Below are positions 42,693-43,574 of a DNA stretch of 64,000 nucleotides, piece after piece. Position 1 is the stretch's first letter. The number at the start of each line of letters is the position of its first letter. A program made the translations under genes and the position numbers. The stretch lies in assembly GCF_054482595.1 (NCBI RefSeq), contig NZ_CM137008.1; one strand, 5' to 3'. The notes beneath the pieces were generated by a model. The model made no database searches and had not been told where the DNA came from. It saw only the letters and a program-made list of their open reading frames with translations.

Positions 42693-43574
42693 TCATGGGG
42701 CAGCATCATTAGGAGGGTATACATTGACCGATGTACTTACACGATGAAACTCTAGTATGTTGCCAGTATGGTGACCAGGGATAGCTTCAAACACCCCAAG
42801 AAATCGGTACAGTGTCCTGTTCAACTCATCACGAGAATGTGCCATAACAATTCGTTTATCCCAGCGTTCTGTGTATCCCTCATCATCCTTTATATTCCGC
42901 TCTATGATTTTGTTACCATCATCAGTCAATTCATTTCCCCAATCTGAATTTCCATATAGTTTTGGAAACCAAACCATGCATTTTCCTGATAGACCCATTG
43001 CTTCACTTATGTGAGAAGGAATGCTCCAACCGCCAGACTGATGATGTCCTTTGTTGTAACCGAAACAGTTCAAAGCATCCCGGTGGTATCTGAAGACGGC
43101 ATCTGGACCTACAGATATCCTTCCTGCCTTAAGATGAGGACGAGCTGTATATTTATTATCATAATCCCATTCTTTGAATTTTTTATCTTTAATCATTCTA
43201 TTTTTACGATTGCGTATCAACTCAATAAATTCATTGATATAACGATCGAAAATTTCAAGACTTATTTCGCTGGCGGGAATTCTTTTCTCTAAAAATCCTG
43301 TAACTTCAGTAATATCCATACGACGTTTCGCATCATCTATTTGTGATTGCTCACTGTTGTGATGCCCTTCATCAATTTCAAGATAAAGTTCCAGTTGTGG
43401 GAAAAATAAATCTGCCAAATAGATTTTTCCATTTTCTTTTCTGACACATTGCTGGCAGACAAATTCAATGTCGGGATCATTTAAAAGATGATAAATGCGA
43501 GTTACTGCATAATGTTCCCATCGTTTTTTTGAGGTTTTCGTAAGTGAACGTAGGATGTAATCAGTTTTATCCAT
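42693..43574 (-). CDS. hypothetical protein (293 aa), N-terminal restriction-endonuclease-like (PD-(D/E)xK / DUF559-like) motif
   Basis: motif YLADLFFPQLELYLEIDEGHH resembles the D...(I/V)ExDG core of Vsr/DUF559-type nucleases; cargo position in the element. Confidence 0.5.
   Translation of the reverse strand: MDKTDYILRSLTKTSKKRWEHYAVTRIYHLLNDPDIEFVCQQCVRKENGKIYLADLFFPQLELYLEIDEGHHNSEQSQIDDAKRRMDITEVTGFLEKRIPASEISLEIFDRYINEFIELIRNRKNRMIKDKKFKEWDYDNKYTARPHLKAGRISVGPDAVFRYHRDALNCFGYNKGHHQSGGWSIPSHISEAMGLSGKCMVWFPKLYGNSDWGNELTDDGNKIIERNIKDDEGYTERWDKRIVMAHSRDELNRTLYRFLGVFEAIPGHHTGNILEFHRVSTSVNVYPPNDAAP

Follow-up and report, generated by a model that had tools for sequence, protein, structure and literature searches.

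[quoted passage not shown] The protein, 293 amino acids in length, is an uncharacterised addition to a well-characterised family with solved structures: about 20 members have been characterised, none of them from E. coli or closer than ~60% identity to the protein described here (PMC3627594), and the gene represents a fairly divergent E. coli addition to a family whose enzymes serve as reagents for 5hmC mapping. It lies in the remnant of a P4-like satellite, and provides a clear example of a predicted anti-T-even restriction enzyme that was delivered by a satellite and has stayed intact after the satellite decayed. The gene is already recognised by standard pipelines (RefSeq, PADLOC), and the hotspot in which it sits is already described in a 2026 preprint; the importance of the observation is modest, as it brings no new mechanism and answers no open question, and what it offers is to turn the annotation of the window from a "possible novel nuclease" into a specific, testable function.

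The reading frame recognised in the preliminary description of this DNA is a real gene. On the minus strand it is open for 293 codons from the ATG at 43574 to the stop at 42693, with a Shine-Dalgarno-like run, GAAGGAAGG, directly 5' of the ATG, and its homology is far above chance: phmmer searches of the PDB sequences matched PvuRts1I (4oky/4oq2) with an E-value of 5e-114 over query residues 1-287 and AbaSI (4par) with an E-value of 7e-52, 216 homologues were found at E<=1e-10, and PADLOC assigned the protein to model PDLC03210 ("mREase_II, Type II methyl-directed restriction enzyme"; E 4e-122, 291 of the 294 profile positions). At 38% GC, the coding sequence lies below the window as a whole (48.5%), in keeping with a foreign origin. 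RefSeq names the product "AbaSI family restriction endonuclease" (WP_021557107.1); NCBIfam profiles gave zero matches to the protein, even at E<=1, and the PGAP name presumably comes from some other naming rule. Searches against the PHROGs profiles returned insignificant matches alone.

Two domains account for most of the protein. An N-terminal match to PvuRts1I-like_N (PF21598; residues 5-92, E 1e-26) is followed by a C-terminal match to an SRA domain (PF18491; residues 148-284, E 3e-22), and this order, nuclease and then SRA-like reader, is that of the PvuRts1I/AbaSI family. The C-terminal 170 residues had been left unassigned in the preliminary description, which has to be revised, given that the last ~150 are an SRA-like reader predicted to bind modified cytosine. 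PvuRts1I itself, from plasmid Rts1 of Proteus vulgaris (4OKY, 4OQ2), is likewise 293 amino acids long with the same two domains in the same order, and is likewise encoded by a single gene on a mobile element. Identity between the two proteins is 57% globally over 287 aligned residues (59% in the nuclease domain, 55% in the SRA domain); the remaining 43% of residues differ, and there is one deletion of two residues and one of a single residue. Their carriers differ as well, PvuRts1I being found on an IncT conjugative plasmid and the present gene in a satellite remnant in an E. coli chromosome.

Conservation of the functional residues is nearly complete. The atypical PD-(D/E)XK active site of PvuRts1I comprises Glu20, Asp57, Glu68-Ile-Asp70, Glu71 and Lys17, and the mutants E20A, D57A and E71A are inactive while K17A has at most residual activity (Kazrani et al., PMC4027163). 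All six of these mutagenesis-tested or predicted catalytic residues are kept in the 293-aa protein, K17/E20/D57/E68/D70/E71 of PvuRts1I corresponding to K17/E20/D55/E66/D68/E69, and a histidine pair (H71/H72) follows the catalytic E69. The stretch YLADLFFPQLELYLEIDEGHH, previously singled out as a nuclease motif, spans residues 52-72 and is indeed the active site of a nuclease with the restriction-endonuclease fold. The flipped-base pocket of PvuRts1I is formed by Trp205, Pro207, Trp215, Asn217, Glu228, Tyr237 and Arg244, with R208 contributing through its main chain; W215A and E228A are inactive, and R208A is mildly impaired (PMC4027163). Seven of the eight pocket residues are retained here (W202, P204, W212, N214, E225, Y234 and R241), the sole change being R208 to K205, and every PvuRts1I residue that inactivates the enzyme when mutated to alanine (E20, D57, E71, W215, E228) is present. 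Across 52 aligned homologues (41-85% identity), no variation occurs at K17, E20, D55, E66, E69, W202, P204, W212 or N214, and at least 90% of the sequences keep D68 and H72.

The gene belongs to a 6.9 kb element bounded by two copies of a 28-bp repeat (Table 1). Reading down from ssrA, this P4-like satellite remnant contains an integrase, a Septu-like gene pair, psu, the end of alpha, the ori iterons, the restriction gene and the distal att repeat; the exact iterons TGTTCACC are at 43855, 43916 and 43930, together with degenerate copies, which places the gene, as first described, between ori-like iterons and the distal repeat, with 52 bp separating it from the latter. The backbone is dead and the element is neither intact nor mobilisable: the integrase and psu carry stops, alpha is truncated, and the sid, delta and regulatory region is gone. 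Relative to the intact relatives at the same integration site, strains KMi029 (locus L002) and MARGA_3 (L003), ~4.4 kb has been lost, comprising the alpha N-terminus, an icd-like gene, regulators, a sid-like gene and delta; homology to the full-length alpha of these two satellites ends at 44658-44660, the N-terminal two thirds or so of alpha being deleted and its last ~223 codons left. Both defence cargos of the decayed satellite are intact. The first is identified by PADLOC as a PDC-M01A ATPase of 560 aa (E 1e-99; PtuA E 1e-73) with a PDC-M01B HNH protein of 281 aa (E 3e-37), for which the RefSeq products are "AAA family ATPase" and "HNH endonuclease signature motif containing protein"; the second is the restriction gene.

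Table 1. Features of the satellite remnant and its restriction gene, in order of position in the window.
Feature	Position	Strand	Basis and remarks
Distal att repeat copy, 28 bp, attR-side core AATTGGTACACGTTTAGGTACAC	42614..42641		100% identical pair; core conserved in L002, L003, L007 and L010
Cargo insert, 1,023 bp: gene, 85-bp upstream leader and 56 bp downstream	42637..43659		Homology breaks against L002/L003
Restriction endonuclease CDS, 293 aa (predicted)	42693..43574	minus	ORF list; PDB phmmer; PADLOC; RefSeq WP_021557107.1
C-terminal SRA-like domain, ~residues 139-293, predicted modified-cytosine binding	42693..43160	minus	Pfam PF18491; pocket mapping
N-terminal nuclease domain, ~residues 1-138, atypical Vsr-like PD-(D/E)XK	43161..43574	minus	Pfam PF21598; residue mapping
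Perfect 13-bp inverted repeat, CTTATGGCGATAG-N6-CTATCGCCATAAG, in gene leader	43617..43648		Read from sequence; self-inverted BLAST match
P4 ori-like iteron region, downstream of alpha remnant	43660..43989		TGTTCACC copies; 92-94% identity to L002/L003
alpha primase-helicase C-terminal remnant	43990..44658	minus	RefSeq [quoted passage not shown]
psu (polarity suppression) pseudogene, in-frame stop 44996-44998	44723..45289	plus	Two same-frame ORFs; RefSeq "internal stop"
First cargo, two-gene Septu-like system, classic psu-int hotspot	45670..48203	plus	PADLOC PDC-M01A and PDC-M01B
P4-type integrase pseudogene, internal stop	48206..49399	minus	RefSeq on the 100% identical THO-010 element; 340-codon ORF open here
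Proximal att repeat copy, 28 bp	49450..49477		Beside integrase pseudogene, ~105 bp from ssrA 3' end
ssrA (tmRNA), chromosomal integration landmark	49583..49945	minus	ARAGORN; RefSeq

Homology to the satellites of MARGA_3 and KMi029 breaks at 42636 and 43660, and the slot so defined measures 92 bp in the former, where it is empty, 612 bp in the latter and 1,023 bp here. Its occupant in KMi029 is a 166-aa DUF6998 protein, called mREase_II by PADLOC under another model (E 1e-100) and bearing a distant resemblance to Eco15I, an enzyme of the BisI family (E 1e-4); on comparison, we found no sequence similarity between this protein and the 293-aa protein. That the slot is empty in one relative and holds a different nuclease in another shows it to be a true swap site, in agreement with the earlier remark that no P4 backbone gene is known at this position. 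Homologues with 85% (L010) and 65% (L007/L008) identity have the same alpha-end/iteron flank and the att core AATTGGTAYACGYTTAGGTAYAC. A general tie of the close homologues to P4 elements does not hold, however: the 62% homologue from Klebsiella michiganensis stands alone in the chromosome, with Rrf2/HI_0983-family genes on one side and a dnaJ-like (DnaJ/DnaJ_C) gene on the other, and the flanks of a 69% metagenomic homologue (L009) have neither iteron nor att DNA in common with the window. Primase-att has been described as a minor P4 defence hotspot, holding 7% of P4 systems (bioRxiv 10.64898/2026.02.27.708500), and the restriction gene has the features of its cargo, namely a location between alpha/ori and att, conserved flanks and variable content among related satellites. 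As the sole gene of the insert, it is predicted to be a stand-alone defence gene, much as had been proposed. Like other P4-satellite hotspot cargo (Rousset et al. 2022; bioRxiv 10.64898/2026.02.27.708500), it occupies a single locus with conserved flanks whose content is swapped between satellites; unlike typical P4 hotspot carriers, its satellite is non-functional and has cargo in both hotspots, an arrangement seen in ~1% of the P4 elements with complete defence systems (bioRxiv 10.64898/2026.02.27.708500). PvuRts1I-type enzymes are not mentioned in the main texts of these two studies.

With the satellite dead, the restriction gene might be an inactive or unexpressed relic riding in it, perhaps without a promoter, and the integrase and psu pseudogenes and the truncated alpha fit this possibility, which we nevertheless consider unlikely. 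The alpha stop is followed, on the minus strand, by a hairpin and T-run (43981-43962), and a consensus scan found no sigma-70 promoter between this terminator and the ATG, its one site lying within the coding sequence. A relaxed scan did find extended -10 promoter-like elements at 43682-43715, which speak against a promoterless gene: TGaTATAAA at ~43715-43707 and TATAAA at 43682, both on the minus strand. These are weak candidates that lie beyond the cargo junction, in backbone DNA, and they are the sole promoter-like elements upstream of the gene. Family membership is no guarantee of activity either, since 5 of the 28 family homologues studied by Borgaro and Zhu were inactive in crude lysates (PMC3627594), and the E. 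coli copies, at >=99.9% identity, give no signal of purifying selection for the very reason that they are nearly identical. Against the relic stand the open reading frame, which is intact with a strong ribosome-binding site and retains each catalytic residue and the pocket, and the contrast between two intact defence cargos and three broken backbone genes. We infer that the restriction gene is expressed and that, after the decay of the satellite, it would serve as a fixed chromosomal defence gene beside the Septu-like system. The perfect inverted repeat in the leader is a possible operator or 5'-UTR hairpin, judging from the sequence; at the locus of the 85% homologue (L010) it is partly conserved and imperfect, with no compensatory changes, and we therefore assign no function to it.

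How the restriction enzyme would act can be outlined from its family. [quoted passage not shown] Selectivity for modified DNA amounts to factors of hundreds to thousands (PMC3627594; PMC4081097), and the purified homologues all eluted as dimers (PMC3627594). In the AbaSI structures the N-terminal cleavage domain is Vsr-like and has one catalytic site, the dimer forms through the N-terminal helices, and a distance of ~70 A separates the SRA-like domains (PMC4081097). By analogy with these characterised members, the 293-aa enzyme would act as a homodimer in which each SRA-like domain flips 5hmC or glucosyl-5hmC into an aromatic pocket (W202/W212/N214/E225), and the paired N-terminal domains (K17, E20, D55, E66, D68, E69, H72) would use Mg2+ to cleave both strands at ~11-13/9-10 nt on the 3' side, working best between a pair of cytosines spaced by ~21-22 nt. 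The target would be the incoming DNA of T-even-like phages, cleaved directly; PMC3241641 cites PvuRts1I as restricting T-even phages in vivo. Neither a cognate methylase nor an antitoxin would be needed, because the DNA of the E. coli host is without hmC.

This last point bears on a suggestion made earlier, that the protein could be an abortive-infection nuclease, or a toxic one, that kills the infected cell. A lone nuclease gene in a defence hotspot, with no cognate methyltransferase, could be taken in that sense, but we regard the suggestion as very improbable and reject it: the 1,023-bp insert has no second gene that might act as antitoxin or sensor, the family discriminates in favour of modified DNA, of which the host has none, and works by direct cleavage of the invading DNA, and its members have been over-expressed in E. 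coli for purification. None of the PADLOC models for Abi or TA systems matched the protein, mREase_II being the one model that did. The SRA reader points instead to a modification-dependent restriction enzyme, in place of an abortive-infection or generic nuclease.

An AlphaFold2 monomer model of the 293-aa protein (pLDDT 86.6, pTM 0.77) was compared with the PDB by Foldseek, and strong matches, each with a probability of 1.0, were obtained only for PvuRts1I (4oq2, E 7e-40; 4oky) and AbaSI (4par, E 1e-27). The HMM and structure-based homology searches that had been recommended for this protein thus agree in finding a restriction-endonuclease fold, the former through PF21598 and the latter through PvuRts1I and AbaSI. 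Whole-chain TM-scores to the family structures were 0.56-0.60 (~0.58 to PvuRts1I), low values that probably reflect a different orientation of the two domains in the model. Weak matches were seen to the Vsr-like nucleases NGO0050 (3hrl) and I-Bth0305I (3r3p) and to the SRA-like readers of LpnPI and SauUSI. The preliminary description had called the motif PD-(D/E)xK/DUF559-like, and the first half of this holds: the nuclease domain of PvuRts1I and AbaSI is described as an atypical, Vsr-like PD-(D/E)XK domain (PMC4027163; PMC4081097), and the one found here is of the same kind; the protein is not, however, a member of Pfam DUF559. In the Pfam search, the Vsr and DUF559 (PF04480) profiles gave no match even at E<=10, two insignificant matches being the only others besides PF21598 and PF18491, and the resemblance to Vsr/DUF559 is limited to fold and active site. 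That the protein is a repair or nicking endonuclease of the Vsr/DUF559 type, acting on T/G mismatches, is scarcely credible and is rejected, in spite of the Vsr-like structure of the nuclease domain (PMC4081097), those weak fold matches and the JGI name "very-short-patch-repair endonuclease" on some homologues, given this lack of a profile match, the fused SRA domain, the full-length homology to proven cleavers of hmC-DNA and the location of the gene in a phage-defence hotspot.

Among the better-known enzymes, AbaSI of Acinetobacter baumannii (4PAR/4PBA/4PBB) has the architecture of the 293-aa protein, with the catalytic set K23/E26/D61/E72/D74/E75/H78, but is 24-28 aa longer and only ~35% identical in the structural alignment. 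PpeHI (from Proteus penneri), YkrI, EsaMMI and PatTI (Borgaro and Zhu 2013) are further characterised homologues belonging to the same family. Enzymes of the MspJI/LpnPI/AspBHI type and the SRA-HNH enzymes (TagI, ScoMcrA) resemble this family in combining an SRA-like base-flipping reader with a nuclease that cuts at a fixed distance, but they have either the reversed domain order or an HNH nuclease, are specific for 5mC/5hmC in short contexts, and lack significant sequence similarity to the 293-aa protein.

Preference among hmC, alpha-glucosyl-hmC and beta-glucosyl-hmC differs strongly between family members, AbaSI preferring beta-glucosyl-hmC and PvuRts1I the alpha form (PMC3627594). The 293-aa protein, at 57% identity to PvuRts1I, differs from it at 45% of SRA-domain positions and has the R208K substitution at the pocket rim; this divergent E. 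coli allele may have a sugar or hypermodification specificity that is new to the family and tuned to coliphages, for example to gentiobiosyl-hmC (T6) or arabinosyl-hmC (RB69-like). A companion idea is that the alpha-att slot of ssrA-type P4-like satellites is reserved for modification-dependent nucleases, each encoded by a single gene and possibly driven by a backbone promoter; both of the two occupants seen are, by their sequences, of modification-dependent nuclease types (PvuRts1I-type here, BisI/Eco15I-like in KMi029). Taken jointly, the two ideas are speculative, and we give them a small chance of being right.

The restriction gene was found in 15 of 5,426 complete E. coli genomes, always in the chromosome, and all 15 copies lie within one decayed 6.96-kb element that is 99.9-100% identical throughout; an identical element in every carrier is consistent with a single acquisition. 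In the phage collection there were distant relatives only, at ~37% identity in Streptococcus suis phages together with split matches in Acinetobacter, so that the gene is not typical phage cargo. Its closest plasmid relatives, at ~57% identity, are found on Rts1-like conjugative plasmids of Providencia, Proteus and Moellerella, and a homologue from Proteus penneri (P0018), the species from which PpeHI derives, is ~59% identical to the 293-aa protein.

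The P4-like backbone beside ssrA (window 43990-49399) is non-functional: there are internal stops in both the integrase and psu genes, only the C-terminal ~223 codons of alpha are left, and in comparison with the intact relative at the ssrA site in MARGA_3 some 4.4 kb is missing, from the N-terminus of alpha through sid/delta. Both defence cargos of the remnant (2/2) are intact. This combination of a broken backbone with intact defence genes looks like domestication of the satellite cargo.

One of these cargos, an ATPase/HNH gene pair, matched the PADLOC candidate system PDC-M01A/B (E-values of 1e-99 and 3e-37), and PADLOC also returned a match to PtuA of the Septu system (E 1e-73). 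The pair is situated in psu-int, the classic P4 hotspot, so that both hotspots of the remnant hold defence cargo; among P4 elements whose defence systems are complete, such double occupancy is reported for only ~1% (bioRxiv 10.64898/2026.02.27.708500).

Features of the satellite remnant, its relative and the flanking chromosome
Feature	Sequence	Position	Strand	Annotation or context
Two-gene defence system: 560-aa ATPase and 281-aa HNH protein	Window	45670-48203	+	PADLOC
Perfect 13-bp inverted repeat, CTTATGGCGATAG-N6-CTATCGCCATAAG	Window	43617-43648		Leader of the restriction gene
166-aa DUF6998 protein	L002 (satellite of E. coli KMi029)	9240-9740		Alpha-att slot of a related intact satellite; PADLOC mREase_II
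1,567-aa YpjA/EhaD adhesin-like autotransporter	Window	37679-42382	+	Adjoins the satellite remnant
PNPxPKPD repeat linker of the autotransporter	Window	41348-41455		
tRNA, anticodon CAT	Window	34593-34668		ARAGORN: Met; RefSeq: tRNA-Ile

The slot between the alpha/ori iterons and the distal att repeat has a different occupant in the satellite of E. coli KMi029. This DUF6998 protein, labeled mREase_II by PADLOC (PDLC03209, E 1e-100), shows distant similarity to Eco15I, a 5mC-dependent enzyme of the BisI family (PDB 8q5m, E 1e-4), and was found in only one of 5,426 E. coli genomes. At the locus of the 65% homologue (L007/L008), a second copy of the iteron block lies 3′ of the restriction gene (1355-1471), in addition to the upstream one; it appears that the cargo there was inserted inside the ori repeat region, or that it duplicated this region.

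The inverted repeat of the restriction-gene leader may act as an operator or form a 5′-UTR hairpin; it is imperfect at the locus of the 85% homologue, where no compensatory changes were seen.

The 3′ end of ssrA is separated from the proximal att repeat by ~105 bp, without overlap (window 49450-49582), and the intervening DNA may be the scar of an earlier integration at ssrA, which is the CP4-57 site in K-12. On the other side of the remnant, the tRNA at 34593 corresponds to ileY in K-12. The IS1A element that interrupts ygaC in E. coli THO-010 is absent from the window (~19900-20800, compared with L011); the carrier strain thus differs from THO-010, despite the 100% identical satellite remnant.
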